This document shows positions 3,270-51,180 of a DNA stretch of 51,993 bases, piece by piece (position 1 is the stretch's first letter; the number at the start of each line of letters is the position of its first letter). The notes under the pieces were generated by a model that was not told the DNA's origin, did no database searches, and saw nothing but the letters and a program-made list of their open reading frames with translations. A program made the translations under genes and the position numbers. This stretch comes from a virus. Location of the stretch: the IMG/VR virus record IMGVR_UViG_3300004625_000001; one strand, written 5' to 3'.

Positions 3270-3442
3270 GCTTCACCGCCTTTCGCCGGATCGTCCTTGC
3301 GGTGGCGGAAGTATTCGAGCGCGGCCTCGGCAACAGAGGTTTCAGCAAGCTCCTCGATATCGCGGCCGAGTTCGGCGGCGATGACCTGCAGGCGTTTCAT
3401 CGTTTCAGAAGATGCAAGAACACTTAGTGTGCTGTAGCTCAT
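3266..3442 (-). CDS. Small ribbon-helix-helix-like protein (58 aa, below the ORF-track cutoff)
   Basis: Translated by hand: MSYSTLSVLASSETMKRLQVIAAELGRDIEELAETSVAEAALEYFRHRKDDPAKGGEA. The ATG overlaps the ninB stop (ATGA) and the stop overlaps the next start (GTGA). Confidence 0.55.
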   Translation of the reverse strand: MSYSTLSVLASSETMKRLQVIAAELGRDIEELAETSVAEAALEYFRHRKDDPAKGGEA

Positions 3443-3849
3443 GCCGCTTTTCCTTTCGGATCAGACCACTCGACGCCATGCTGAGCGCCGAAGGCGAAGA
3501 TGATTTCAATGAGGTCGGTCATCTCTTCCTTGGACAGGTCGGATGACGAAGTGCCGAGCGGCACGAAGCCGCTCCCGTCTATGTTCGGGACCATTCGGAT
3601 CTGCTCGGACCTTTCCCGACGCAGCGCGTCGAGCATCACGAACTTCCAATCGTCAGGCGTGAGCTGCTGGCCGTACCAGGTGAGCTGGAGCGAAAGGTCG
3701 GTCAGCATCGCCCACATACGGTCATTCTGAGGGGTGGTGCGCTTCGGTCCCTTGAACTCGACACGGGTGTCTCTGGGCGCGCGCTGAATCCAGTCGATTG
3801 CCTTCTGACGAAAGTGGTCGTTCGCTAGGACGAGAAGCGCTCTGCCCAT
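3439..3849 (-). CDS. ninB: NinB/Orf-family recombination mediator
   Basis: Colinear with lambda NinB: PQNDRMWAMLTDLS..W.G..L..DDWK..., VPNIDGSGFVPLG.S.S, and FGAQHGVEWSD. ATG at 3849 is preceded by GGAGG. Confidence 0.88.
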   Translation of the reverse strand: MGRALLVLANDHFRQKAIDWIQRAPRDTRVEFKGPKRTTPQNDRMWAMLTDLSLQLTWYGQQLTPDDWKFVMLDALRRERSEQIRMVPNIDGSGFVPLGTSSSDLSKEEMTDLIEIIFAFGAQHGVEWSDPKGKAA

Positions 3850-3850
3850 C

Positions 3851-4822
3851 TCAGCCTCCATTGAGCGGAGACAGCGCGGCAAGGCGGCGCGACTTGATCG
3901 CCAAGGCTGCTTCGATCATGTCGGCATGACCTTCGCTTTCCAGCACGGCCGGCGCATCGAAATCGGTCCAGATTTCCTCGACGCTTGCTTCGTCCTTTGC
4001 GCCGGCGAGGGCGGTCTCGATCTCGTCAAGGAAGTCACCGAGCGAAAACTCGCTTGCAGGTTCGTCCGTCGGCTGCTCGGGCTCGACTCTGGCCTCGATC
4101 GTCTTGGATGGAGGAGCGGGCGGCTTTGGAGGCTTGGGCGGCGTCGGCTTGCCCTCGCCCGATTCAGCGGGCGGGGTGATATCGCGCATCTCTTCGGCGT
4201 CGGCGATCTCGCGGACTTCGAACTCGTCGCGGATACCGCCGAGCACGTCGCCGAACAGTTCGCGAAGGCAATAGCCGGCCGCGCGCCACGCTAGCATGCG
4301 CTGCGGGAACCGATACCAAGGGCTGTCGTTCGGCTTCTCCTCGTTCTTCTTGTCCCACTTGTTCCACTTCACGACCGTGGCCTTGGTCTGCCACAGCCCG
4401 GCGCGTTCGGCGTCGGCCTGGCTGAACTCGACCCGCTTTTCTTCGCCGGTATCGAGCCGCTTTGCCTCGCAGAAGCCGACCATCTTGCCGTTGCGCTCTT
4501 CGCAGCCGGTCCGGAGATAGGCGACCTTGCCAGACATGCGGACGACATTGATCAGACCATCGCCGTAGAGGGCGGGCCGACCGTTGATCACGGTAAAGCT
4601 GCGAAGGCTGACCATCGGCTTGAGGCCGAGCTCAGCGCCGGACATAATGGCGACTGCGACTGCGGCTGCTGCATCATCGCCCTCCAGCTTGCCGATCAGT
4701 GCCGACGGTGCCAGGCCGGAGGCGCACACAGCTCGTGCGATGCGCAGCGTCTCCTCGAACGTCTGAGGGACGATGGCGAGGACATTGCCGCCGCCGGTCA
4801 GGGTTGGAACATGGCTGTTCAT
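3851..4822 (-). CDS. recT: RecT-family single-strand annealing protein
   Basis: RecT-like core (GLKPMVSLRSFTVINGRPALYGDG..., PWYRFPQRMLAWRAAGYCLRELFGDVLGG) plus an acidic/proline-rich tail. Confidence 0.88.
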   Translation of the reverse strand: MNSHVPTLTGGGNVLAIVPQTFEETLRIARAVCASGLAPSALIGKLEGDDAAAAVAVAIMSGAELGLKPMVSLRSFTVINGRPALYGDGLINVVRMSGKVAYLRTGCEERNGKMVGFCEAKRLDTGEEKRVEFSQADAERAGLWQTKATVVKWNKWDKKNEEKPNDSPWYRFPQRMLAWRAAGYCLRELFGDVLGGIRDEFEVREIADAEEMRDITPPAESGEGKPTPPKPPKPPAPPSKTIEARVEPEQPTDEPASEFSLGDFLDEIETALAGAKDEASVEEIWTDFDAPAVLESEGHADMIEAALAIKSRRLAALSPLNGG

Positions 4823-5157: not shown

Positions 5158-6155
5158 CAGGCAGCCCTCTGTTCCGAGCGGATCGCCATTCCGGCCAGCT
5201 CAACGCCAGAGCGGGCGGCGCGGTTGGCGAGCGTCTCGACGACTTCCTTGATTTCGGCCCGGTCCTTCAGCGCCATAAGCAGTGCGTCGAAATCGGTGAT
5301 CTCGGCAAAGACGAAGGTGCGGAGAGAAACCTTAGCGCCCGTCCGACCGGCGCTGGCGTTGCGAGCCTGAGTTTCGCGCTCGGCTGCGGCCGCCTGTTGG
5401 GCAAGGCGTTCGGCCTCGGCCACGGCATCAGCCGCCGCGGCGCTGTTGTCGTTCTTCGCTGCAGCCTTCTCGGCAGCAACACGAGCTGCATCGGCTTCGC
5501 GCTGAATGCGGTCGGCTTCGGCACGGGCCGCAGCCTGGCGCTCGCGCTCCTTGCGCGCTTCCTCCTGCAGGAAGGCGTCCATATGGCGCTTCAGCTTCTT
5601 GCTGATCGCGTCGGGCTCATCCTTGAGAGCGCGCCACTTGTCGTCGACCGAACGGCCGGCGTCGAGGTGAGGCTGCTTTTCAACCTTGTGCAGGTCGGTC
5701 GCCTTCTTGGCGATTGTCGACAGACGTTTCGACCAGATCGCGGCGCGGTCGGCCTCTGCCTGCGTGGTAATCGGCTTCTTCAGGAAGGCTTCCGCCTGCT
5801 CGCGCTCGGCGGCAAACTCGACCTGGAGGGCTTCGAAAGGATCGGTCGGCAGGTTATGGCCGATGGCTGGCGCTTCAGGCTCATCATCCCAGCCAGCCCC
5901 ATCGATCGCCTTGGTATAGGCTTCGTAGCTGATCGGGTTGCGGCAGCACCACGTCCAGATATCGGAAGCGTCAACCTGACGCTCACCGCGCATCGCATGC
6001 CACTTACCGTCTTCGAACCAGATGGCGACGGGGTCCCACGGCTTGTCCTTGAAGCGGGTGCGATAGTAGCCCTGCTGCGGGTCGCCGTCGTGGATCGGGC
6101 CGAGGTTGCCTTCAAGGGCGTTCTGCCACCAAGCCCACACATTCACTTCTGCCAT
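5157..6155 (-). CDS. Hypothetical early protein with Ala/Glu-rich coiled-coil centre
   Basis: 332-aa ORF in operon context; Trp-rich N-terminal domain. No family recognised. Confidence 0.7.
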   Translation of the reverse strand: MAEVNVWAWWQNALEGNLGPIHDGDPQQGYYRTRFKDKPWDPVAIWFEDGKWHAMRGERQVDASDIWTWCCRNPISYEAYTKAIDGAGWDDEPEAPAIGHNLPTDPFEALQVEFAAEREQAEAFLKKPITTQAEADRAAIWSKRLSTIAKKATDLHKVEKQPHLDAGRSVDDKWRALKDEPDAISKKLKRHMDAFLQEEARKERERQAAARAEADRIQREADAARVAAEKAAAKNDNSAAAADAVAEAERLAQQAAAAERETQARNASAGRTGAKVSLRTFVFAEITDFDALLMALKDRAEIKEVVETLANRAARSGVELAGMAIRSEQRAA

Positions 6156-6361
6156 GCGATTTGCTCCTGGTTGATGAGCGCGCCCGCCTTGAGGTTCTGC
6201 TCGGTCGGCGCGAAAGAGAGGACGGTGAGGACGCCGACGGCGGCCACGGTGAGGATGAGGGTGATCGCCTTGTTGATGGCGCCGATCAGTCGGAGGTGAC
6301 CTTCGAGGACCGGAGCGGCGCGGGCGTTGATGTCGGCGAGCTGGGCTGGGATGTCGGTCAT
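6143..6361 (-). CDS. Small membrane protein
   Basis: 72 aa; hydrophobic helix ITLILTVAAVGVLTVLSF; operon context. Confidence 0.55.
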   Translation of the reverse strand: MTDIPAQLADINARAAPVLEGHLRLIGAINKAITLILTVAAVGVLTVLSFAPTEQNLKAGALINQEQIAWQK

Positions 6362-6561
6362 GGCAGCCGTGCCCCCTCGATCAGGAAGACGGGAGCTTCG
6401 CCGTGAAAGTCGAGATCCATACGGCCCGGAAGGGCATCGACGAGCGCGTCGGTCTCAAAGCACATCTGCTTCAATTGGCGTTTTTCTTCTTCGTTCTGGC
6501 AGGCTCTGGCGGCTGCATAGGCCGCTTGGTTCAGAGCGCGGAGGAGGTCGGCGTAGCTCAT
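6358..6561 (-). CDS. Hypothetical small protein
   Basis: Start MSYADLL at 6561 overlaps the upstream stop (ATGA). The longer 6630 start would overlap the neighbouring gene. Confidence 0.55.
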   Translation of the reverse strand: MSYADLLRALNQAAYAAARACQNEEEKRQLKQMCFETDALVDALPGRMDLDFHGEAPVFLIEGARLP

Positions 6562-7217
6562 ACTGCACCTGCCTTGGAGGCAATCTGCTTTGCCGAATAG
6601 ATCGCGTTGTTCGTGATTTTCCGCTGCCACGCGCCGTTCTTCGGCGACCAGTTCCAGGCTGCGCCTTTCAGGGCGGAGATGATCTCAGCGGAGGGTTTGC
6701 CATCGAAAATGATCTGAAGGCGCTCAATGTCGTGATTAGCGACGATGAGGACGTCACCAATGGTGAACTCTTCCTTGCCCGACTTCGCGCCTTCCGGCTT
6801 GGGATGGGCGACATAGCCGACGGCCTTCACTGCCTTGATGGAGGCAGCCAAGGCGCGGTCTTGCCAGTCGTAAAGCTCCTTGGCTTTCTTCTCGTAGGAG
6901 TTCCAGATTTTCTCCTGACGACGAACAGGGAAGTTCGCCGGTCCGGTGATCATCGTCGACATCATATGGCTACGCGAAGACCACATGGCCGAGAGGCGCT
7001 GGATGTAGTTTTCTCTGTAGCGCTCAGACTGCGCGACCGCTTCGGCCATGCGCTCGTCCGTATCTGCGACAGAAACAAGTTTGGCGTTGAAGTTGGTCAT
7101 GTGCGCCACGTAGTCGGAGACTTCGCTCTCGCCCCGACGCTCGGGGCTGTGGCTGGTACCTGCGTGGGCGCGGATGGCGAGTTGCAGGTTTACGTCAGTT
7201 GCTAAAGGCTCACGCAT
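6558..7217 (-). CDS. DUF3560-like phage protein
   Basis: C-terminal LQIIFDGKPSAEIISALKGAAWNWSPKNGAWQRK. The N-terminal 102 aa of the listed ORF is Pro/Ser/Thr/Arg-rich junk overlapping 7210-7467. Start taken at MREPLATD (7217). Confidence 0.6.
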   Translation of the reverse strand: MREPLATDVNLQLAIRAHAGTSHSPERRGESEVSDYVAHMTNFNAKLVSVADTDERMAEAVAQSERYRENYIQRLSAMWSSRSHMMSTMITGPANFPVRRQEKIWNSYEKKAKELYDWQDRALAASIKAVKAVGYVAHPKPEGAKSGKEEFTIGDVLIVANHDIERLQIIFDGKPSAEIISALKGAAWNWSPKNGAWQRKITNNAIYSAKQIASKAGAV

Positions 7218-7853: not shown

Positions 7854-8152
7854 GCAAGGAAGTGTTGAGTTTTATCATCGTGGCGCCATTCGAGCAGCGC
7901 GCAGCTGTGGCGTCGGCGAAGGAGCGGCTGGAGAACTACCTGTCTCACCGCTTCCCGGGGTACGACTTCAAGGTCGGACCGTTCGCGCCAGTTGGTGAAG
8001 AGGGCGCTTTCACGGTGTTGCCGATCATGAATTTCGTCGGCGACGACGGGAAGAGCTACATGTGCGAACCGCCGTCGCGCTGGCTGCTGCAGGATATTGG
8101 CAACGCTTGCAATGAATTCGATCTTAAGGGTAGGCGGAGTTTCGCCGCTTAG
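7850..8152 (+). CDS. Hypothetical protein
   Basis: Start MSKEVLSF at 7850 overlaps the upstream stop (ATGA). The 3' end overlaps the cI stop by 4 nt (convergent). Confidence 0.55.
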   Translation: MSKEVLSFIIVAPFEQRAAVASAKERLENYLSHRFPGYDFKVGPFAPVGEEGAFTVLPIMNFVGDDGKSYMCEPPSRWLLQDIGNACNEFDLKGRRSFAA

Positions 8153-8859
8153 AACCCAGGCATCGTATTGAGGACCATACGGACGATCCCGATAATTTCG
8201 ACCATTACCCCGTCGTCAGCGTCGAACTGGCGCTGCACGACGATCGGCTTGTGCCTTGGATTGCTCGATCGAGGATGGAACTCCGTCCTGTCCTCATAGA
8301 TCTCTATTTGCTTCACCGACCATTCCCGCATGTGGCCGCCGTCGCGGGTCCGCTGCACGACGACGACCATTCCATCGCGAAGCACGACGCGGTGGGCAAC
8401 ATCCTCATAAGCGGTGGCGACGATCGTGTCACCTGGCAGGATGGGGCGAGGCCGAAGCTCGTTCATGCTGTCGCCTTCGACGTCGAAGGTAAGCTGGCGG
8501 GCGTTTGGAAACTTCTCGTCGCGCGGAACCGTGATCTCTTCGGGCTCTGATTGATCGAACTCGTCGACCTCGCGGAAGAGGCTTGCGGAGACGATGCCGG
8601 CCTTCCTCGCTTGAACCCACTTTTCCGATGAAGGGGACACTTCAGACTGAGGTTCAAGCTCGATACCATCTCGAAGCCAGACGCGCGACCTGCCGATCGC
8701 ATCAGCCAACTTGTCGATCACATTCCCTCGCGGGTTGTCTGTGTCGCCCCTCAGATATTTGTTGATGCTGTCGTAAGGGACACCGGAACGCTTTGACAGA
8801 TCGGCTTTGTTCAAGCCGAGCGCGTCCATTTCCTGCTGAAGTCTTTCCCACCATTTCAT
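8149..8859 (-). CDS. cI: CI-like repressor: XRE HTH + S24 (LexA-type) autopeptidase
   Basis: N-terminal HTH LNKADLSKRSGVPYDSINKYLRG. C-terminal GDSM serine motif and downstream catalytic Lys region (WSVKQIE). Divergent from the cro-like gene. Confidence 0.9.
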   Translation of the reverse strand: MKWWERLQQEMDALGLNKADLSKRSGVPYDSINKYLRGDTDNPRGNVIDKLADAIGRSRVWLRDGIELEPQSEVSPSSEKWVQARKAGIVSASLFREVDEFDQSEPEEITVPRDEKFPNARQLTFDVEGDSMNELRPRPILPGDTIVATAYEDVAHRVVLRDGMVVVVQRTRDGGHMREWSVKQIEIYEDRTEFHPRSSNPRHKPIVVQRQFDADDGVMVEIIGIVRMVLNTMPGF

Positions 8860-8943: not shown

Positions 8944-9192
8944 ATGAGCACGTTCCGAACCATCCCAGAGATTGTCAAAGATTGCGGAGGCGCCCGCCGC
9001 ATTAGTGCGGCTAGCCTGAGCGAGAAGAGCAAGTGGCCGCTCAAAATCGATGCCATATACAAATGGTCGATCACGGGCATCCCAGACCGCCACTGGACCC
9101 TTCTCATGTCCCTCACGGACACGAGCGCTGAAGAGCTGCACGCGGCGAATTGCGCCGTTCGCGGCATCGATGCTGCGGAGACAGCAGCATGA
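8944..9192 (+). CDS. cro: Cro/YdaS-like small DNA-binding protein
   Basis: 82 aa; ...IDAIYKWSITGIPDRHW... resembles the YdaS/Cro family. First gene of the rightward operon, opposite cI. Confidence 0.6.
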   Translation: MSTFRTIPEIVKDCGGARRISAASLSEKSKWPLKIDAIYKWSITGIPDRHWTLLMSLTDTSAEELHAANCAVRGIDAAETAA

Positions 9193-9947
9193 CGGCCGAC
9201 AAGCAGCTCAAAGCCTACATCGACCGAGTTCTTCGCCTGAAGGAAGAGCAGGACGCACTCGGCCAGGACATCCGAGACGTTTACGCCGAGGCAAAGGCCG
9301 AAGGCTACGACAAGACCGTGATGGGCAAGCTTGTCGCCCATCTCCGCAAGGTGCTGAAGGAAGGCGACGGCGCGATTGCTGAAGCCGAAAGCATCTTCGA
9401 CACGTACCTGCATGCCTACCAGCGCGCATCTGGCACGGCAGTTGCAATCGCGCACACGCATGAGGAAGAATTCGACCCGATCACGGGCGAGTTCGTCAAC
9501 GATAATTCCGAGACGCACCAGAGGCCCTCGACCAACGATAAGCCATCCCAAGAGGCAGGTCCGCAAGCCGAAGCCTCTCCTGCCGGGACTGGAGCCGGGA
9601 CGCTTGCGGATCGTGAGGGCCGTTTCGAAGGGGAGGCGGCTTCGGCCGACCTCTCCACCAATCCCGAAATCGATCCGAATGAGGATCGCGAAGAAGGCCA
9701 CAGCCTCGACGGGAACGTCGGCGCCAACGCAGGAGGCGACCATGTAAACCGCAGCGTAGAGCGCGCGTCCGGGCGACAGCAGGACACCCATACCTTGAAC
9801 AACCGGCTGGATGGTGTGCCCGTCCAGTCGGTCAAGAAGCCCCTTCGGCCTTTGTGCCGGAACCCAGGCGACAACTGTGGCGGCTACGGCAGCACGCATT
9901 GCGCCTACTGCCTGCGAGCATCGAAGCAAGCTGAGGTGGCGGCATGA
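9189..9947 (+). CDS. GapR/DUF2312-domain protein with long acidic tail and Cys-rich C-terminus
   Basis: N-terminus LKAYIDRVLRLKEEQDALGQDIRDVYAEAKAEGYDKTVMGKLV matches the DUF2312 signature. ATGA overlap with cro. C-terminus is CRNPGDNCGGYGSTHCAYC. Confidence 0.75.
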   Translation: MTADKQLKAYIDRVLRLKEEQDALGQDIRDVYAEAKAEGYDKTVMGKLVAHLRKVLKEGDGAIAEAESIFDTYLHAYQRASGTAVAIAHTHEEEFDPITGEFVNDNSETHQRPSTNDKPSQEAGPQAEASPAGTGAGTLADREGRFEGEAASADLSTNPEIDPNEDREEGHSLDGNVGANAGGDHVNRSVERASGRQQDTHTLNNRLDGVPVQSVKKPLRPLCRNPGDNCGGYGSTHCAYCLRASKQAEVAA

Positions 9948-11187: not shown

Positions 11188-11562
11188 GTGTTGTCAAACA
11201 AAGACAAGGAATTGGCAAACAGGGCCAAGGTCATGACTGATGCATTTTACGCACAAAACCTTCTGAGAGAGGCCTTTCCAGAGAGCCGGTACGGCTCGGT
11301 GAAGGGAGCGATATTTGCGGCATATCGCTTCGTTCGCCCGAAGGTCTCGAAAGAGCTGACCCCAAGAAGAATTCGATCCATCCGCGAGGGAACAGCTCGC
11401 CGGATCGATGCTGAGGAAATGGAAGCGCTCAAGGCAGCGATCATCGAGGAGGCTCACCGTGAGCAACAAGAATTACGCGCCCGTCTGGCTGCGCTGGACA
11501 AAAAGGTTGCCGCTTTCGGCGAGAGCGTGGCTCGCCGAGCGGTGGCGGGCGCGGGCGAATAA
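11188..11562 (+). CDS. Hypothetical protein (coiled-coil C-terminus)
   Basis: The listed start at 11188 is GTG. An ATG at 11233 (MTDAFYAQ) is an alternative. Confidence 0.55.
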   Translation: MLSNKDKELANRAKVMTDAFYAQNLLREAFPESRYGSVKGAIFAAYRFVRPKVSKELTPRRIRSIREGTARRIDAEEMEALKAAIIEEAHREQQELRARLAALDKKVAAFGESVARRAVAGAGE

Positions 11563-11600: not shown

Positions 11601-12818
11601 ATGAGCATTCATCAGCCGACACTCTTCGAGGGCTCGAAGCGTCTTGTCTACGACGAAGCGGTCGAGATGACGCTACAGTCAATGCAGGTCTACGGACCGG
11701 CACACGATCATTGGGTGTTCGCCTTCTCTGGCGGTAAAGACAGCACAGCAACGTTGACGGTCATCATCCACCTGATCGACGCCGGCCGGCTCGCTGCGCC
11801 GAAGTCTATCAGCGTTCTCTACGCTGATACGCGTATGGAACTGCCCCCGCTTGCAATCGCAGCTGAGCGCCTTCTCGATCGGCTCCGCACGCGCGGCATC
11901 CATTGCGAGACCGTGTGCGCACCAATGGATCAGCGTTTCCTCGTCTACATGCTTGGTCGTGGTGTTCCACCGCCGAACAACAACACGTTCCGCTGGTGCA
12001 CTCGCCAGATCAAGGTTGATCCAATGACCGCGGCGCTGGAGCGTCGGATCAACGAGCTCGACGGCTCGATCCTGATGATCACTGGCGTGCGCCAGGGCGA
12101 GAGCGCCATCCGTGATGGCCGCATCGCCATGTCATGCGGCAAGGACGGGGCGGAGTGCGGCCAAGGCTGGTATCAACAGGTTGTTCCGGAAGCGAAAGGT
12201 ATTCGCGGCCGCATCGCCACCTTGGCGCCGATCCTTCACTGGCGCGTCTGCAACGTCTTCGACTGGCTCAAGATTTATGCCCGGATGGAAGAATATGGCG
12301 CTTGGGATACGTCGGCTGTCGTCGACGCCTATGGTGGCGACGAGGCGCAGGAGATCAATGCGAGGACCGGGTGCAACGGATGTCCACTCGCTACCCGCGA
12401 TCTTGGGCTTGAGACCGTCGTCCGCGTTCCGTTCTGGTCGTACATCTCGCCTCTCTCCGGTCTGAAGCCGCTCTATCGGGAACTGCGCGAGCCGCGAAAC
12501 AGACTCAAGAAGACAGGAATCGAAGAGAACGGCGACATTGCCACGGCCAAGAACAAGCAGCGGATGGGCCCGTTGACATTCGAAGCTCGTCTGATGGCGC
12601 TTGGTCGCATCCTGTCCATTCAGTCAGAGATCAAACTCAATGCCAATCGCCTCGTCCGACCGCACGTCGATCTGATCAATGCCGAGGAAGAGTGCCGCAT
12701 CCGCGAGCTGGTCTCGCTCCGCACCTGGCCAAACGGCTGGGACGGCGACGAGCCGACCGCCGACACTCCAATGGATGCTGTCTTTGCAGACGGCTCCGTA
12801 CAGCCACTGTTGATGTGA
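11601..12818 (+). CDS. DndC-like PP-loop ATP pyrophosphatase (PAPS-reductase superfamily)
   Basis: PP-loop FSGGKDST. DndC-type block LGRGVPPPNNNTFRWCTRQIKVDP and ITGVRQGES. Cys clusters SCGKDGAECGQGW and TGCNGCP. GGGAG RBS. Confidence 0.8.
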   Translation: MSIHQPTLFEGSKRLVYDEAVEMTLQSMQVYGPAHDHWVFAFSGGKDSTATLTVIIHLIDAGRLAAPKSISVLYADTRMELPPLAIAAERLLDRLRTRGIHCETVCAPMDQRFLVYMLGRGVPPPNNNTFRWCTRQIKVDPMTAALERRINELDGSILMITGVRQGESAIRDGRIAMSCGKDGAECGQGWYQQVVPEAKGIRGRIATLAPILHWRVCNVFDWLKIYARMEEYGAWDTSAVVDAYGGDEAQEINARTGCNGCPLATRDLGLETVVRVPFWSYISPLSGLKPLYRELREPRNRLKKTGIEENGDIATAKNKQRMGPLTFEARLMALGRILSIQSEIKLNANRLVRPHVDLINAEEECRIRELVSLRTWPNGWDGDEPTADTPMDAVFADGSVQPLLM

Positions 12819-12855: not shown

Positions 12856-13695
12856 CTAAGCTGCACGTTGCCTGGGCCTCGGTCTCCTGCGGCGCGGCTC
12901 GACAACACGCAATCGTTCAATCAAACGCTGATTGAAGTCGACTCGGTCGATCCCAAAGTGCGCACGCCGGTGACAGTCAGGGCACACCCCGATGACGTTG
13001 CAGGGGCTGTCAGGCCCCCCATCGGAAAGACGGTGCACATGGTGGCATTCGATATAAAGACTGCCGTTAGGGCGTCGAAATGGCCCTGGTTCCCTACAGT
13101 TTTCACAAATTCCGCCGGCGCGCGCCAAGACATAGTCCCGTACGTCGCGGCTCCTAGCGAAAACGCTTCTCTGTGCTGGAACACGTTCCGGTGTGGGCTC
13201 TGCAGCTTCGAAAGCTCGACGCCTGAGCTCTTCGATATCTTCTTCGTCGTTCGGGAGGACGGGTTCAACGTGGTCGAGGTTGCCTGCGACATCTCCTGCG
13301 CGGCGCAATTCGAAGACGATCGCATCGCGGATGTTGTTGTATTTGTCTGGCGCTGGTTCGTAGTGGTGGCGCTCATAGACCATTTCTCCATCATAGCGAA
13401 GCCCGCCTCGGACCGACGTGAAGAGATGGATAGCCTCACCATTTTGCCAGGAATCGACGATAGCTCGATTTCCGGACCTCATTTCCATCGGGCCAACCTG
13501 CCCCTGACCAAAATACTCGAAGACGCCATCGTCTCTCCACCGATCGGCGTATCCGTGCCGCCGTCCTTCCTCACCGCTAACAATGAAGATGATGGGAGTG
13601 TCAGCAGGCGTGATGATGCCGCTGCGCTGTTGCCCGTTATAGACCCCGTGGATATCGGCTACGCGGTTGTAAACTTGGCCAAGCATGAACGGCAT
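12856..13695 (-). CDS. SRA(YDG)-like domain + HNH endonuclease; putative modification-dependent (type IV) restriction enzyme
   Basis: N-terminal SGIITPADTPIIFIVSGEEGRRHGYADRWRDDGVFEYFGQGQVG...SGNRAI...GEAIHLF fits the SRA pattern. C-terminal CENC...ECHHVHRLSDGGPDSPCNVIGVCPDCHRRAH is a canonical HNH. It is on the opposite strand to the surrounding operon. Confidence 0.7.
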   Translation of the reverse strand: MPFMLGQVYNRVADIHGVYNGQQRSGIITPADTPIIFIVSGEEGRRHGYADRWRDDGVFEYFGQGQVGPMEMRSGNRAIVDSWQNGEAIHLFTSVRGGLRYDGEMVYERHHYEPAPDKYNNIRDAIVFELRRAGDVAGNLDHVEPVLPNDEEDIEELRRRAFEAAEPTPERVPAQRSVFARSRDVRDYVLARAGGICENCREPGPFRRPNGSLYIECHHVHRLSDGGPDSPCNVIGVCPDCHRRAHFGIDRVDFNQRLIERLRVVEPRRRRPRPRQRAA

Positions 13696-13763: not shown

Positions 13764-13964
13764 ATGACCGAACCCTCCGAGATGATCGCCTGGCTCGACC
13801 GCCGCATCGCCTCCGCCATGACCTGGCTGGACGACCACGGCAAAGGCTCAAAGAAGCCTCGCCCAGACCACGAAATCGAAACCAAGGAATACGACATCGC
13901 CCGCTTTGAGGAGATCAAGGCGGCGTATGTGAAGGCATTGGCGAAGAGGGAGCAGGCGGCATGA
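13764..13964 (+). CDS. Hypothetical small protein
   Basis: TAAGGAGG RBS; 66 aa; ATGA-coupled to the methyltransferase remnant. Confidence 0.6.
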   Translation: MTEPSEMIAWLDRRIASAMTWLDDHGKGSKKPRPDHEIETKEYDIARFEEIKAAYVKALAKREQAA

Positions 13965-14100
13965 TCGAAACCCGCTCAATTCTCGACGGCCGCGGCACGA
14001 TCCTTGTGGACGATTGCATCGAAGCCATGCGTGCGATGCCGGCGCACTCGGTCGATTGCGTTGTGACGTCGCCGCCTAACTGGGGGCTTCGCGATTATGG
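13961..14100 (+). pseudogene. Remnant (first ~46 codons) of a beta-class N6A/N4C DNA methyltransferase
   Basis: ILVDDCIEAMRAMPAHSVDCVVTSPPNWGLRDYG is the N-terminus plus motif IV, with (D/S)PPY degenerated to SPPN. After ~14100 the frame is merely antisense to the DUF982 gene. Confidence 0.7.
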
Positions 14101-14106
14101 GGCAAA

Positions 14107-14130
14107 GAGAGGCCGCAATTGCAGCCTCTC
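14107..14130 (-). terminator. Hairpin downstream of DUF982 gene A
   Basis: gagaggc-N10-gcctctc followed on the minus strand by TTTG. It lies exactly at the methyltransferase breakpoint. Confidence 0.4.
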
Positions 14131-14146
14131 CACTTACGCGAGACTA

Positions 14147-14446
14147 TCAGGCAGAGACACGCCCGCCGCCGGTCGGGGTCTTGATCATCCACGGCTGGAT
14201 CGCGGGCTGCTTCATCAAGATTCCCTTTTTATTTCCGAACGCTCGGATGGCGTCGCGAGCTACCTCAAGCGGCTTATGTCCGTCGTGGGCCATGTAGCAG
14301 GTCTTAAGGGCTGCCTCATGGGCGAGGTCCCGGTCGCGCTCGGGCCAATCTTCAAGGAAGTCAATCGCGTCTGCCAGGGAGACTATCTCCCGAACCAGTC
14401 CTTCCCGCTCCTTCAGATAGACGGGGCGAATGAAGTTTGCATTCAT
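14147..14446 (-). CDS. DUF982-domain protein (copy A)
   Basis: IRPVYLKEREGLVREIVSLADAIDFLEDWP...AALKTCYMA...ARDAIRAFGNKKGIL. ATG at 14446 has a GAGG RBS; the 14479 start is TTG. Confidence 0.75.
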   Translation of the reverse strand: MNANFIRPVYLKEREGLVREIVSLADAIDFLEDWPERDRDLAHEAALKTCYMAHDGHKPLEVARDAIRAFGNKKGILMKQPAIQPWMIKTPTGGGRVSA

Positions 14447-14574
14447 AGCTACCTCACTGAAAACGTTGGTGATCAACAAGGATGGCGCCGAATCTCAACG
14501 CCGGCGAAAAATGTATTTTTGCGGTTTTTCGGTTTCAATACGTGCCGCGTGAAATTTTTGCGGGAGGCCGGCCG

Positions 14575-14730
14575 ATGACCTTCCTCGAAGCCTTCACCAA
14601 GTACGGCCCAGACGTCGAGCGCATCGCCGATGCCCTCGGCATCACTCCACCCGAAGCGGACCGCCTCATCAACGACCTCATGGATCGCCGGTACCAGAAG
14701 CGCGCCCAGTATAGTCGGAGGCCGGCATGA
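14575..14730 (+). CDS. Hypothetical small protein (51 aa)
   Basis: MTFLEAFTKYGPDVERIADALGITPPEADRLINDLMDRRYQKR; GGGAGG RBS; coupled to rusA (ATGA). Confidence 0.5.
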   Translation: MTFLEAFTKYGPDVERIADALGITPPEADRLINDLMDRRYQKRAQYSRRPA

Positions 14731-47262: not shown

Positions 47263-47616
47263 TTAATGGAACGCGTGGTGGAGCCGACCGGCAGCTTCCT
47301 TAATGTAGGTCGCTGCGCGAACGGCGTGATGTTTGAAGCGAGACGTACGGGCTTCAATACGAAGGTGCTTATCCAGCTCCTCCCGTGAGAAGCCAGCCCG
47401 AATGAGTCCGCCGAACGCTTCCTCCAGAAAGGAGGAACCGTATCCGGCGACGTCGTCCAGTACCACGATCAGCACCGAATCCTGATCCTTAGCCGCACGA
47501 AGTGCTGGCACAAGAATTTCTTCGCGGAATTCCTCTCCACTGAAATCCCCGTGCTGCTTGTAGCGCGGGCCGGGGAACCGGCTAAATTCTTCAGCGATTT
47601 CTATAACCCTAGGCAT
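47263..47616 (-). CDS. DUF4325 / STAS-like protein
   Basis: VLIVVLDDVAGYGSSFLEEAFGGLI signature. ATG at 47616 (MPRVIEI) has a GGAAG RBS; the longest ORF extends to 47646. Confidence 0.7.
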   Translation of the reverse strand: MPRVIEIAEEFSRFPGPRYKQHGDFSGEEFREEILVPALRAAKDQDSVLIVVLDDVAGYGSSFLEEAFGGLIRAGFSREELDKHLRIEARTSRFKHHAVRAATYIKEAAGRLHHAFH

Positions 47617-47623
47617 CTGCTTC

Positions 47624-48787
47624 CTACAACTCAAGCTGCCACTCAACTAGCGTTCCGCTTAATGGGAATTCGTGAGTGAGGCTTCTCGGCCGCTTTCCAG
47701 TCTCCCAGATATATTCACCATTTCGACTTAGAATTCTAAGTCTTCCGTACCTAGCGCGCTGAGCTACTTCCACAATGGTGTGAAGCCCTTTTCCGTGCTG
47801 AGGCAGTTGCGTTGAAGACTTCGCAATCTTCATTGCCAGATGTATTGCCAATCCGTCATTGCTAAAATGGTCTATTGGCATTGAAAGTTTCAAGCGCTGC
47901 ATAAACTTTTTAGCACGAATTTCAACTGCATTCCAATGCGCCCAACGGGGTAGGCTGTGTGGTATCGAAACCCCTTGGTCGTAAACACATACGAGCACTT
48001 GGTTGGTTTTAGTATTGACAGCACCCGTCAACCACCAATTTTTGAGAGCCTCATGCTCCCAGACATGTTCCGCTGGGTATGCCCAGCTATAGGAGTTCAG
48101 GATTGCCTCGAGCATTCCACCGTAAGGTTCCGCGGTAAATAATTTCTCTCGCAGTTCCGTAGGAAGCAAGAGTGCTAGCGCGTCTTGCAACCGACCCAAT
48201 TCTTCGCCGTCAGCTCTCTCGCCCGAGACAAACCGTTGGATTTTGACGTCGCCAGTATAGCGTTTTCGTGTGTCGAAAGGTTGCATCTCCAATAACTCGT
48301 GGAACCCTAAAGCACGTAGCATCCCTGTCACATTGGCACGCCACTTGTGCTCGTCGACGCTATGAATTCTTCGCCCGGTTATGTGTTTGGCGCGCTGAAA
48401 AACCGCTGCGAGCACAAGAGCCGCAGAAGGGCTTATCTCGTTTATCGTGGTGAAATCAAAATAACGCTTCAACTTGAATGGGCGCTTGTGTCCCCTGACC
48501 ATGTCCGCCTTGGCCTCGACGGCTCGATCTAGAACGTCAGCCCGCAAGCGATGTATTGCTTCTAGCGTAGCATCCACGTTGTCCTCCAGACAAAAGACAC
48601 GAGGAAGAGGAATGGCTGTCATCATTCTTGTTTTGAATCGGGCCCCCCCTCTAGATATGACGACAGCGCGAGCACCTGCTCTGCTCTGGCGAGATTTGCG
48701 CGAAGTCTTCCAAATAAGTCTTCGAATTTCTCTGTCTCGCGCTACTTTTCTTTGGAAGCGTCTGTATTTCTCTGAATGTTTTCGCAT
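47624..48787 (-). CDS. GHKL (histidine-kinase-like) ATPase / putative Ser kinase
   Basis: Ordered Bergerat-fold motifs LEAILNS (N-box-like), VYDQGVSIP (G1-like) and GKGLHTI (G2-like). Very basic N-terminal 50 aa. GAGGG RBS at 48787; an alternative start is at 48625. Confidence 0.65.
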   Translation of the reverse strand: MRKHSEKYRRFQRKVARDREIRRLIWKTSRKSRQSRAGARAVVISRGGARFKTRMMTAIPLPRVFCLEDNVDATLEAIHRLRADVLDRAVEAKADMVRGHKRPFKLKRYFDFTTINEISPSAALVLAAVFQRAKHITGRRIHSVDEHKWRANVTGMLRALGFHELLEMQPFDTRKRYTGDVKIQRFVSGERADGEELGRLQDALALLLPTELREKLFTAEPYGGMLEAILNSYSWAYPAEHVWEHEALKNWWLTGAVNTKTNQVLVCVYDQGVSIPHSLPRWAHWNAVEIRAKKFMQRLKLSMPIDHFSNDGLAIHLAMKIAKSSTQLPQHGKGLHTIVEVAQRARYGRLRILSRNGEYIWETGKRPRSLTHEFPLSGTLVEWQLEL

Positions 48788-48851
48788 CGAACCCTCACAA
48801 GAGCTCGATCAACTACAACGCGAAGAAAACGTCAAGCGCTTGCCTCCATGC

Positions 48852-49229
48852 TCAACCAGCCGTGCACCAATCATTCTTCCGGTGCGGTGTCCACTCTCGG
48901 GCGAACCCTTCCTTGAGCAGCTTGGTCCCGATCTCTTCCCCGTTCGTTCGATAGATGTTTACGAGCGGCCTATGCTTCGGCGTGTTGTCGAAGCCTTTTA
49001 TTTCTATCTGCAGGCCGCGTTCTTCCAAAAGCTCTTTCAGCCTTCCCTTGGCGATTAGCGCCAGTTTCCGTTCCTTGATGCACTTCGCGTGCGATCCGAC
49101 CTCCGGGGTATCTATGCCCCATTGGAACGGCACTCCTCCTCCCAGCAATCGCATGAGCTGCCCGTCGCAGCGCACGGTGTCGCCATCTACCGCAGACAGT
49201 GTGGCGCACATCAGCATTCCGGCGATCAT
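48852..49229 (-). CDS. Staphylococcal-nuclease-like (SNase/thermonuclease) protein
   Basis: VDGDTVRCDG...RLLGGGVPFQWGIDTPE..., then KGR...D...RPLVNIY..G.....L..EGFA. Confidence 0.75.
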   Translation of the reverse strand: MIAGMLMCATLSAVDGDTVRCDGQLMRLLGGGVPFQWGIDTPEVGSHAKCIKERKLALIAKGRLKELLEERGLQIEIKGFDNTPKHRPLVNIYRTNGEEIGTKLLKEGFAREWTPHRKNDWCTAG

Positions 49230-50130: not shown

Positions 50131-51180
50131 ATGACCAAGTCTCCAAAGTCAAAGCCGCTCCTGCAATCCGACAGGCCGCTTCGCTCGCGAGCGCGCAAGC
50201 CGCGAGATCCCGCGCAGCCAAATCTTCCCCTCGATCCCATGCCGGCGCGCATCGAGCCGTGTCTCGCTCTCCTGAAGCAGAAACCGCCTAAAGGGCAGCA
50301 ATGGGCCTTCGAGGTGAAGTGGGACGGCTACCGGATTGCGGTTCATATCGAGCCCAAGGGCGTTCGTATTCTGACGCGAGGCGGACACGACTGGACGCAC
50401 CGCTTCCCGGCGATTGCTGCTGAGGCGGCGCAGCTCGGGGCAGCAACGGCAATCATCGACGGTGAAGCCGTGGTGCTGGATGAGCGAGGCCGGTCGGATT
50501 TCAGCCAGTTGCAGCAGTCGCTCGGGGGCCGCGGCGGTAGGCTGAACTCCGGTGCATCCGTTCTGATGGCCTTCGACCTCCTGTATTTCGATGGTCACGA
50601 TCTCACGCAGACAGAGCTTTCAACCCGCCGGCATCTACTTGAAGGGCTGATCGCGCCAGGTAGGGAAAGTGCCATCCGGATATCGGAGGAGGTGGAGGCG
50701 GACGGCGAGCAGTTGCTGCGCCTAGCCTGCGAGCACGGGCTCGAAGGGATCATCGCCAAGGATCGCAACAGCGCCTATCGCTCTGGCCGGCTCGGCGACT
50801 GGCTTAAGGTCAAATGCATCCAAAGCGATAGCTTCATGATAGTCGGCTGGGAGCAATCGAGTGTCGCGCGAGGCCATGTTGGTTCTTTGCTCCTGGCTGC
50901 CTACAAAGGCAATGATCTGGTTTATGTCGGATCAGTTGGAACCGGCATCAAAGACAGCGAGGCATGGAAGCTTCGCGGCATGATGGAAAAGCTGACGGTC
51001 AAGAGGCCTCCCGTCGCTTATGATGGTTCCCGAAAGAACCTGACATGGCTCCAGCCAACGCTGATAGCGGAGGTCGAATATCGCGCATGGACCCATGACG
51101 GCAAGCTTCGCCATGCGTCTTACAAAGGCCTGCGGGAAAAGCAGGACAATGCCGAAGTCTTTGTAATCCAAAATAACTAA
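50131..51180 (+). CDS. ATP-dependent DNA ligase (LigD ligase-domain type)
   Basis: Motif I EVKWDGYR (KxDG), motif III-like LMAFDLLYFDG, motif IV GLEGIIAK and motif V DWLKVK. An OB domain follows. Confidence 0.88.
   Translation: MTKSPKSKPLLQSDRPLRSRARKPRDPAQPNLPLDPMPARIEPCLALLKQKPPKGQQWAFEVKWDGYRIAVHIEPKGVRILTRGGHDWTHRFPAIAAEAAQLGAATAIIDGEAVVLDERGRSDFSQLQQSLGGRGGRLNSGASVLMAFDLLYFDGHDLTQTELSTRRHLLEGLIAPGRESAIRISEEVEADGEQLLRLACEHGLEGIIAKDRNSAYRSGRLGDWLKVKCIQSDSFMIVGWEQSSVARGHVGSLLLAAYKGNDLVYVGSVGTGIKDSEAWKLRGMMEKLTVKRPPVAYDGSRKNLTWLQPTLIAEVEYRAWTHDGKLRHASYKGLREKQDNAEVFVIQNN

Follow-up and report, generated by a model that had tools for sequence, protein, structure and literature searches.

Sulfur is put into the DNA backbone by DndC, an enzyme of the DndABCDE phosphorothioation system. 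BrxP, from BREX type 4, and SspD are described (PMC12914056, PMC12839542) as PAPS-reductase/PP-loop proteins that phosphorothioate DNA. In Vibrio, a phage PAPS-Dam fusion that moved with one adjacent gene let the phage overcome the host Dnd system (bioRxiv 10.1101/2021.05.05.442762, the Piel precedent), and PMC13551039 cites the fusion as overcoming Dnd. Here we analyse a stand-alone DndC-like gene of a temperate rhizobial phage, carried by the virus record IMGVR_UViG_3300004625_000001, a stretch of 51,993 nucleotides that is called the window throughout. Its product is a member of PHROG 12882. This large clade of prophage proteins is the sister group of DndC and, although catalogued, is uncharacterised. 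We propose, tentatively and with confidence just short of even, that it is an autonomous ATP- and Fe-S-dependent DNA-modifying enzyme, possibly coupled to replication, which would serve anti-restriction.

The open reading frame (ORF) spans positions 11601-12818 on the plus strand, encodes 405 amino acids and is preceded, 8 nt ahead of its ATG, by the ribosome-binding site GGGAG; a promoter and terminator scan gave a chance-level result. An earlier note, made from the letters of the window, had reported a PP-loop, a DndC-type block and two cysteine clusters in this ORF, and all are present: FSGGKDST occupies residues 42-49, the DndC-type block LGRGVPPPNNNTFRWCTRQIKVDP residues 118-141, the first cluster SCGKDGAECGQGW residues 178-190 and the second, TGCNGCP, residues 256-262. 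The gene and its motifs are located as follows.

11601..12818, plus strand: stand-alone DndC-like PP-loop and putative Fe-S protein of PHROG 12882, assigned by profile matches and tree; ratio of nonsynonymous to synonymous substitution rates (dN/dS) 0.04-0.11
11727..11744, plus strand: PP-loop SGGKDS (residues 43-48), the ATP pyrophosphatase signature, invariant in 51 relatives and aligned with SGGKDS of Salmonella DptC
11991..12002, plus strand: RWCT motif with invariant C133, aligned with FRWCT of DptC
12135..12158, plus strand: clade-specific cysteine pair C179/C186 (SC-x6-C, within ...AECGQGW), invariant, with no DptC counterpart
12249..12251, plus strand: C217 (HWRVC), invariant in the alignment of relatives
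12372..12383, plus strand: GCxxC pair C258/C261, invariant and aligned with GCWTC of DptC
12801..12815, plus strand: QPLLM tail, a conserved pattern and candidate beta-clamp-binding motif

The profile that fits the protein over its full length is PHROG 12882 itself (1.2e-219, 730 bits; residues 5-405 on profile positions 3-403 of 404). The PADLOC DndC model is matched at 9e-33 and 112 bits (residues 24-369 on model positions 15-369 of 481) and the NCBIfam DndC model TIGR03183 at 3.4e-28 and 98.7 bits (model positions 7-359 of 447), while Pfam recognises the generic PAPS_reduct domain (2.7e-07, 31 bits). The PADLOC models for BrxP (49.7 bits) and SspD (35.5 bits) match more weakly and in the N-terminal domain only. 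A comparison of profiles had been proposed in the earlier note; it came out in favour of DndC over SspD, and also over BrxP, but short of full membership, since the 98.7 bits lie below the curated equivalog cut-off of TIGR03183 (290.4 bits). Judged by its sequence, the protein is not a canonical DndC. With DndC/DptC it has in common the PP-loop SGGKDS, the RWCT cysteine and the GCxxC pair; it differs in having no DndA, B, D or E partner and no C-terminal extension, and in carrying the relocated pair C179/C186, the extra invariant C217 and a clamp-like tail. None of the CysH models was matched in the NCBIfam search, and a sequence search of the PDB gave no match, to a DndC structure or otherwise. 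The AlphaFold2 model (predicted local distance difference test, pLDDT, 76.8; predicted template modelling score 0.79) is of low confidence in the cysteine loops and the tail, and Foldseek searches of the PDB and BFVD with it returned generic PP-loop enzymes only (GMP synthetase, APS reductase, TilS, LarE and NcsA).

More than 5000 relatives, mostly from Rhizobiales, Pseudomonas and Burkholderiales, are found in the protein collection under the names 'PAPS reductase family protein' or 'DndC', so that the gene is not the unusual orphan for which the earlier note took it. A protein identical to that of the window occurs on contigs of up to 1.06 Mb, indicating that the window is a prophage. Cultured carriers include the Rhizobium phages RHph_N28_2 (93% identity) and RR1-A (74%), the Pseudomonas phages Dobby, phiC725A and D14A (about 64-65%) and a Microcystis phage (62%). 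Phages of this PHROG such as RHph_N28_2, RR1-A, Dobby and phiC725A share with the window the full-length match and the early-operon position; the window differs from them by the loss of methyltransferase neighbours and by a nuclease cassette containing SRA and HNH domains (see below).

The separation from canonical DndC is sharp. In 50 species-representative genomes carrying the prophage-type gene, on which TIGR03183 was run, this type scored 78-113 bits (50/50 genomes) and six canonical DndC proteins 308-646 bits, with no overlap. Five of the six adjoin a DndD over its cut-off and the sixth (genome G010) adjoins a DndD-like ORF of 219 bits. We also built a maximum-likelihood tree of canonical DndC, the phage proteins and distant relatives, rooted on CysH/CysD from the same genomes. 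Canonical DndC (SH-like approximate likelihood-ratio support, SH-aLRT, 98) has as its sister the clade (96) that unites the phage proteins with more distant relatives. A grouping with assimilatory PAPS reductases, which the earlier note had named as evidence against a DndC affinity, was not seen, CysH/CysD falling outside DndC plus the orphan clade. The window protein carries the whole clade signature, namely SC-x6-C, HWRVC, GCxxC and a C-terminal QPLL[FMVI] tail. No ParB domain, as expected of an IbrB/YbdM-type partner, was found among the window neighbours; neither PHROG 12882 nor TIGR03183 had a match in an E. coli control genome, a comparison made without a bona fide IbrA sequence or model, and a search of 5426 E. 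coli genomes gave no nucleotide match to the gene. Apparent fusions among the representative relatives were mostly frameshifted translations or internal inserts and yielded no informative fused domain.

Purifying selection on the gene is strong (dN/dS about 0.05): the individual values range from 0.036 to 0.113 against ten relatives, with dS saturated at ~1.2-1.5. Neither the PP-loop nor any of six cysteines (C133, C179, C186, C217, C258 and C261) varies among 51 relatives with 63-93% identity, and the C179/C186 pair is found in distant members of the orphan clade as well. As far as its motifs go, the protein retains all the requirements of PP-loop ATP pyrophosphatase chemistry, together with these six cysteines. 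When it is aligned with Salmonella DptC, there is correspondence in the PP-loop, in the cysteine of RWCT and in the GCxxC pair, and the cysteines just before DptC GCWTC have no partner. Of the cysteines proposed to hold the [4Fe-4S] cluster in DptC, the GCxxC pair is therefore conserved and the upstream one is unaligned. The cysteine site resembles a rearranged cluster site, in which C179/C186 may substitute.

The protein appears to work independently of Dnd partners. The earlier note had recognised no other dnd or ssp gene in the 52 kb, and this was borne out: a PADLOC scan of all 108 window ORFs of at least 118 amino acids matched only the DndC, BrxP, SspD, mREase_IV and MTase_II models and no other Dnd or Ssp component, with BrxC/PglZ and SspB/C, the partners of BrxP and SspD, also absent. 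The DndC, BrxP and SspD models each matched one ORF, with the E-values obtained when the DndC-like ORF was scanned alone, and the mREase_IV matches are those of the neighbouring HNH gene. Smaller, DndE-sized ORFs were covered by tblastn alone, in which Salmonella DndB, DndD, DndE and a linked 141-aa protein gave a best E of 0.019 across the window. At the level of hosts, DndD is above cut-off in five of the 50 carrier genomes and by this measure is missing from the other 45, one of which comes near the cut-off. A 580-aa SMC-like ATPase encoded upstream in 13 Pseudomonas-type loci was considered as a DndD and discarded, because just its Walker-A end matches, and does so to many ATPase models. 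Moreover, phiC725A (L003) and a viral contig (L047) are 99.1% identical in nucleotide sequence over exactly the DndC-like gene (6007-7217) and show no similarity within 6 kb on either flank. Since this one gene is all that they have in common, the unit of exchange is the single gene, which moves as a cassette of its own among phages that are otherwise unrelated. What follows the gene differs between the two, being a C5 methyltransferase and Dam in phiC725A and other genes with an SRA-HNH gene in L047. The rarity of DndD, this exchange and the differing neighbours together argue that the protein depends neither on Dnd partners nor on the genes beside it.

The early-operon location given in the earlier note was confirmed: the gene belongs to a rightward operon, with a CI-like repressor gene on its upstream side and RusA, DUF1376 and DnaA-HTH (helix-turn-helix) genes on its downstream side.

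8149..8859, minus strand: CI-like HTH/S24 repressor found by profile search, marking the start of the rightward early operon
11188..11562, plus strand: upstream early-operon gene of PHROG 26665, not ParB-like in profile searches

The same operon holds a gene for a GapR-like DNA-binding protein (9150-9947), and in the leftward arm lie genes for NinB (3439-3879) and, as a weak match, a RecT-like protein (3851-4819).

Unbiased ORF clustering around 85 loci of the DndC-like gene returned, as the commonest neighbours, two families of large C5 cytosine methyltransferases (637 and 687 aa), which often overlap the start or stop of the DndC-like gene; an 865-aa N6/N4 methyltransferase is also recurrent. 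Examples of the C5 enzymes (L074:7234-9147 and L023:3567-5630, 637-687 aa) contain six to seven repeats of SVADPR or DEPxxTxTA, a pattern that suggests multispecific enzymes with several target-recognition domains. Counts were made at loci flanked by 4 kb or more on each side and are lower bounds, as only methyltransferase types similar to the query set were scored: within 6 kb, 37 of 55 loci on viral contigs have a methyltransferase (C5 type, 30; none detected, 12), as do 29 of 67 on genome contigs (C5 type, 21; none detected, 36). The DndC-like protein itself aligns, through its PAPS-reductase region (residues 27-177), with positions 34-189 of 544 of the PADLOC MTase_II model PDLC03333. The Vibrio PAPS-Dam protein likewise contains a phage-borne, DndC-related PAPS-reductase domain, is linked to a methyltransferase and acts in counter-defence; it differs in being a 479-aa fusion transferred with a second gene, whereas the window protein stands alone. 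The methyltransferase neighbours, the MTase_II match and this precedent lead us to consider the DndC-like gene as DNA-modification or anti-restriction cargo of temperate phages.

The C-terminus may indicate how such an enzyme reaches DNA. The pattern Q[PL]x[LFM][FLIMV] occurs within the final 25 residues of 131 out of 144 unique sequences, at or one residue from the C-terminus in 72 of them, and the remaining 13 tails are mostly near variants. QPLLF, QPRLF, QPLLV, QPLLM and QPLLI are the commonest forms; distant members carry QLSLP, QRDLF, QLNLL or QLVLAG, and a 553-aa distant DndC-like paralogue (L176, G032:C24) has QADLF. This paralogue has a long C-terminal region without assignment and ends in the clamp-motif-like RQADLFDLAAA. 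A stricter pattern, Qxx[LM][FL], was found in 10 of 60 representative tails, as against 1.9% of internal 30-residue windows. The tail is conserved although the AlphaFold2 model predicts disorder there, and no clamp-like motif was seen in the canonical DndC sequences compared. The general consensus for clamp binding is QL[SD]LF. The proven beta-clamp motif of E. coli MutL is QPLLIP (PMC4678855). By this resemblance, the tail may dock the DndC-like protein on the sliding clamp, and such docking would account for the ability of a solitary DndC-type enzyme to locate DNA when DndD/E are absent.

On its 3' side the gene is followed, across the 37-bp gap given in the earlier note and confirmed here, by a convergent gene for an SRA-HNH nuclease, and beyond it by a conserved small ORF and the remains of a methyltransferase.

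12856..13695, minus strand: TagI-like SRA-HNH type IV (modification-dependent) nuclease on an inserted cassette, assigned by Pfam HNH, PADLOC mREase_IV and fold
13764..13964, plus strand: conserved ORF of 66 aa that separates the variable slot from the methyltransferase slot, 83% identical in nucleotides to RHph_N28_2, with a homologue at 8075-8275 in the prophage L086
13961..14101, plus strand: remains of an N6/N4 DNA methyltransferase, about 47 codons from its 5' end, matching the start of the intact 379-aa N6_N4_Mtase of L086
14147..14479, minus strand: DUF982 gene bounding the deletion (Pfam DUF982, 4.4e-20), the same gene that follows the intact L086 methyltransferase

The nuclease has 279 aa, with a Pfam HNH match of 36.5 bits and an AlphaFold2 model of pLDDT 85.8. 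Foldseek matched this model to ScoMcrA (5zmm, 2.9e-14), TagI (6ghs, 2.9e-09) and MspJI, and to plant and animal SRA domains bound to DNA containing 5-methylcytosine (5mC) or 5-hydroxymethylcytosine (5hmC), with a template modelling score of about 0.6 (SUVH5 SRA); its HNH half matches E. coli McrA. The SRA domain was not detected by sequence in the Pfam search and was recognised by fold, and homologues of the protein carry the precomputed Pfam PF26348. In architecture and fold the protein is of the TagI/ScoMcrA kind. It begins directly with the SRA domain, as TagI does, and is missing the sulfur-binding and head domains of ScoMcrA. The modelled architecture therefore points to a putative reader of modified cytosine; nothing in it speaks for the reading of phosphorothioate.

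Relative to RHph_N28_2, the segment 12821-13762, which contains the nuclease gene, is an insertion placed exactly between the stop codon of the DndC-like gene and the 66-aa ORF. GC content in the nuclease gene is lower at third (0.60) than at first codon positions (0.67), most neighbours having 0.70-0.81 at third positions; this codon composition is consistent with a recent foreign origin. In the methyltransferase remnant the catalytic SPPY has become SPPN, and the match to PHROG 67 is limited to residues 9-52. An ORF of 205 aa at 13961-14578 on the plus strand was rejected as a single gene: it is the remnant read on through the antisense of DUF982. The gene orders after the DndC-like gene compare as follows.

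RHph_N28_2: 66-aa ORF, then two methyltransferases
Pseudorhizobium prophage L086 (92% identity): 287-aa unknown ORF, 66-aa ORF, intact 379-aa N6_N4 methyltransferase (SPPY), DUF982 on the minus strand
Window: SRA-HNH on the minus strand, 66-aa ORF, 47 codons of the N6_N4 methyltransferase (SPPN), DUF982 on the minus strand

This three-phage comparison indicates that the methyltransferase was deleted in the window and that the slot beside the DndC-like gene is a cassette site. SRA-HNH genes are found at about 11 of 165 loci and are absent from about 93%. A C5 methyltransferase lies within 6 kb at none of the loci with SRA-HNH, and those in the window's own lineage also lack the N6/N4 methyltransferase. 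We read the locus as a hot spot at which genes for DNA modification and nucleases that depend on modification take each other's place. The exclusion of C5 methyltransferases is what a 5mC-dependent nuclease would require, on a statistic that five lineages make weak.

Some other genes of the window are worth recording. One ORF of at least 118 aa matches Pfam Acb1 (anti-CBASS; 4.7e-37), and an ATP-dependent DNA ligase gene (DNA_ligase_A_M and A_C domains) lies near the right end, at 50131-51177. At 47263-49226 on the minus strand, the gene for a DUF4325 STAS-like protein overlaps that for a 386-aa protein without family, with a staphylococcal-nuclease-like gene nearby; the genes of this region may be accessory or defence cargo.

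We thus propose that the DndC-like enzyme would use ATP to adenylate a nucleic-acid oxygen and would replace this oxygen with sulfur, which would be delivered through its own Cys/Fe-S centre after loading by a host cysteine desulfurase. Phage DNA would thereby be marked against restriction, much as by the methyltransferases that often adjoin the gene. The QPLL[FMVI] tail would dock the enzyme on the beta clamp, so that coupling to replication might replace the DNA-scanning apparatus of DndD/DndE. In the phage of the window, the methyltransferase neighbour would then have decayed and a 5mC/5hmC-type SRA-HNH cassette would have dropped into the adjacent slot. The suggestion of the earlier note, a stand-alone phage copy acting in anti-restriction, survives to the extent that it fits the methyltransferase neighbours and the PAPS-Dam precedent; the DNA modification itself is a step that we infer. 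Several points weigh against the proposal: (i) the Piel precedent concerns a different, fused protein with a second gene; (ii) the Fe-S centre is deduced from cysteines alone, one DptC cysteine position being unaligned; (iii) the structural model is of moderate confidence (pLDDT 76.8) and resembles generic PP-loop folds alone; (iv) no methyltransferase is nearby at about one fifth (viral) to one half (genomic) of the loci, with the limited query set used; and (v) the tail could be another short linear motif, its variant in the window ending in M and not in F. A more specific form of the proposal, in which the whole orphan clade is a one-protein, clamp-tethered and replication-coupled system that thiolates the backbone or a base of new phage DNA without DndD/E, seems to us rather doubtful.

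Other explanations have to be set against this proposal. That the enzyme does not act on DNA at all is unlikely: thiolation of tRNA, RNA or a small molecule in the manner of TtcA, TtuA, NcsA or LarE, or an auxiliary role in sulfur metabolism, would agree with the Foldseek matches to NcsA, LarE, TilS and APS reductase and with the database label of PAPS reductase, but the protein is sister to DndC and not to CysH/CysD, has no NCBIfam CysH match, sits in a DNA-modification slot with DNA methyltransferases as neighbours or fusions, and bears the clamp-like tail. It is quite unlikely, too, that the protein is an anti-Dnd decoy or inhibitor, a DndC mimic that titrates DndA/IscS, DndD/E or DndFGH and modifies no DNA by itself. 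The C-terminal 100-170 aa of canonical DndC are indeed missing from it, and a phage PAPS-domain protein did overcome Dnd in Vibrio (bioRxiv 10.1101/2021.05.05.442762). However, a PP-loop and six cysteines kept invariant under a dN/dS of about 0.05 argue that catalysis matters, and Dnd is present in only 5-6 of the 50 carrier genomes. Such a frequency is near that of dnd systems in general.

The same genomes bear on the possibility, raised in the earlier note, that the phage enzyme plugs into host DndD/DndE (or SspBC) to phosphorothioate phage DNA. DndC is its nearest relative and canonical Dnd coexists with it in six of the 50 genomes, but the 45 hosts without DndD mean that hijacking cannot be its general function; no other window ORF of at least 118 aa matched Dnd/Ssp models and the DndC region beyond position 370 of the TIGR03183 model is missing, so we hold this very unlikely. 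Equally improbable, in our view, is the writer-reader pair that the earlier note had drawn from the convergent genes, in which the SRA-HNH nuclease would read, or be blocked by, the product of the DndC-like enzyme. In five lineages, and in four different arrangements, homologues of the nuclease (39-86% identity) do occur no further than 1.3 kb from the DndC-like gene. Yet the nuclease is an insertion relative to RHph_N28_2, is lacking at most loci and has the TagI fold without the sulfur-binding domain, the slot also holds unrelated cargo, and the whole pattern is as expected of a hot spot that takes up genes for restriction and modification. A near-identical DndC-like gene stands beside a C5 methyltransferase in phiC725A and near SRA-HNH in L047; as it coexists with either neighbour, its product is probably not the substrate of the nuclease, and the two genes would be independent cargo.

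Members of the family occur in thousands of prophages, from Rhizobiales, Pseudomonas and Burkholderiales among others, and bear a 'PAPS reductase' label that invites a wrong reading as a sulfur-metabolism gene. The window provides a useful natural variant, with the enzyme free of any methyltransferase and beside a nuclease that would depend on modified cytosine. If the DndC-like enzyme modifies DNA alone, it would constitute a minimal sulfur-based anti-restriction system and a handle on how DndC-type enzymes act; and if the clamp-tethered, one-protein reading is true, it would represent a new and very widespread phage DNA modification.

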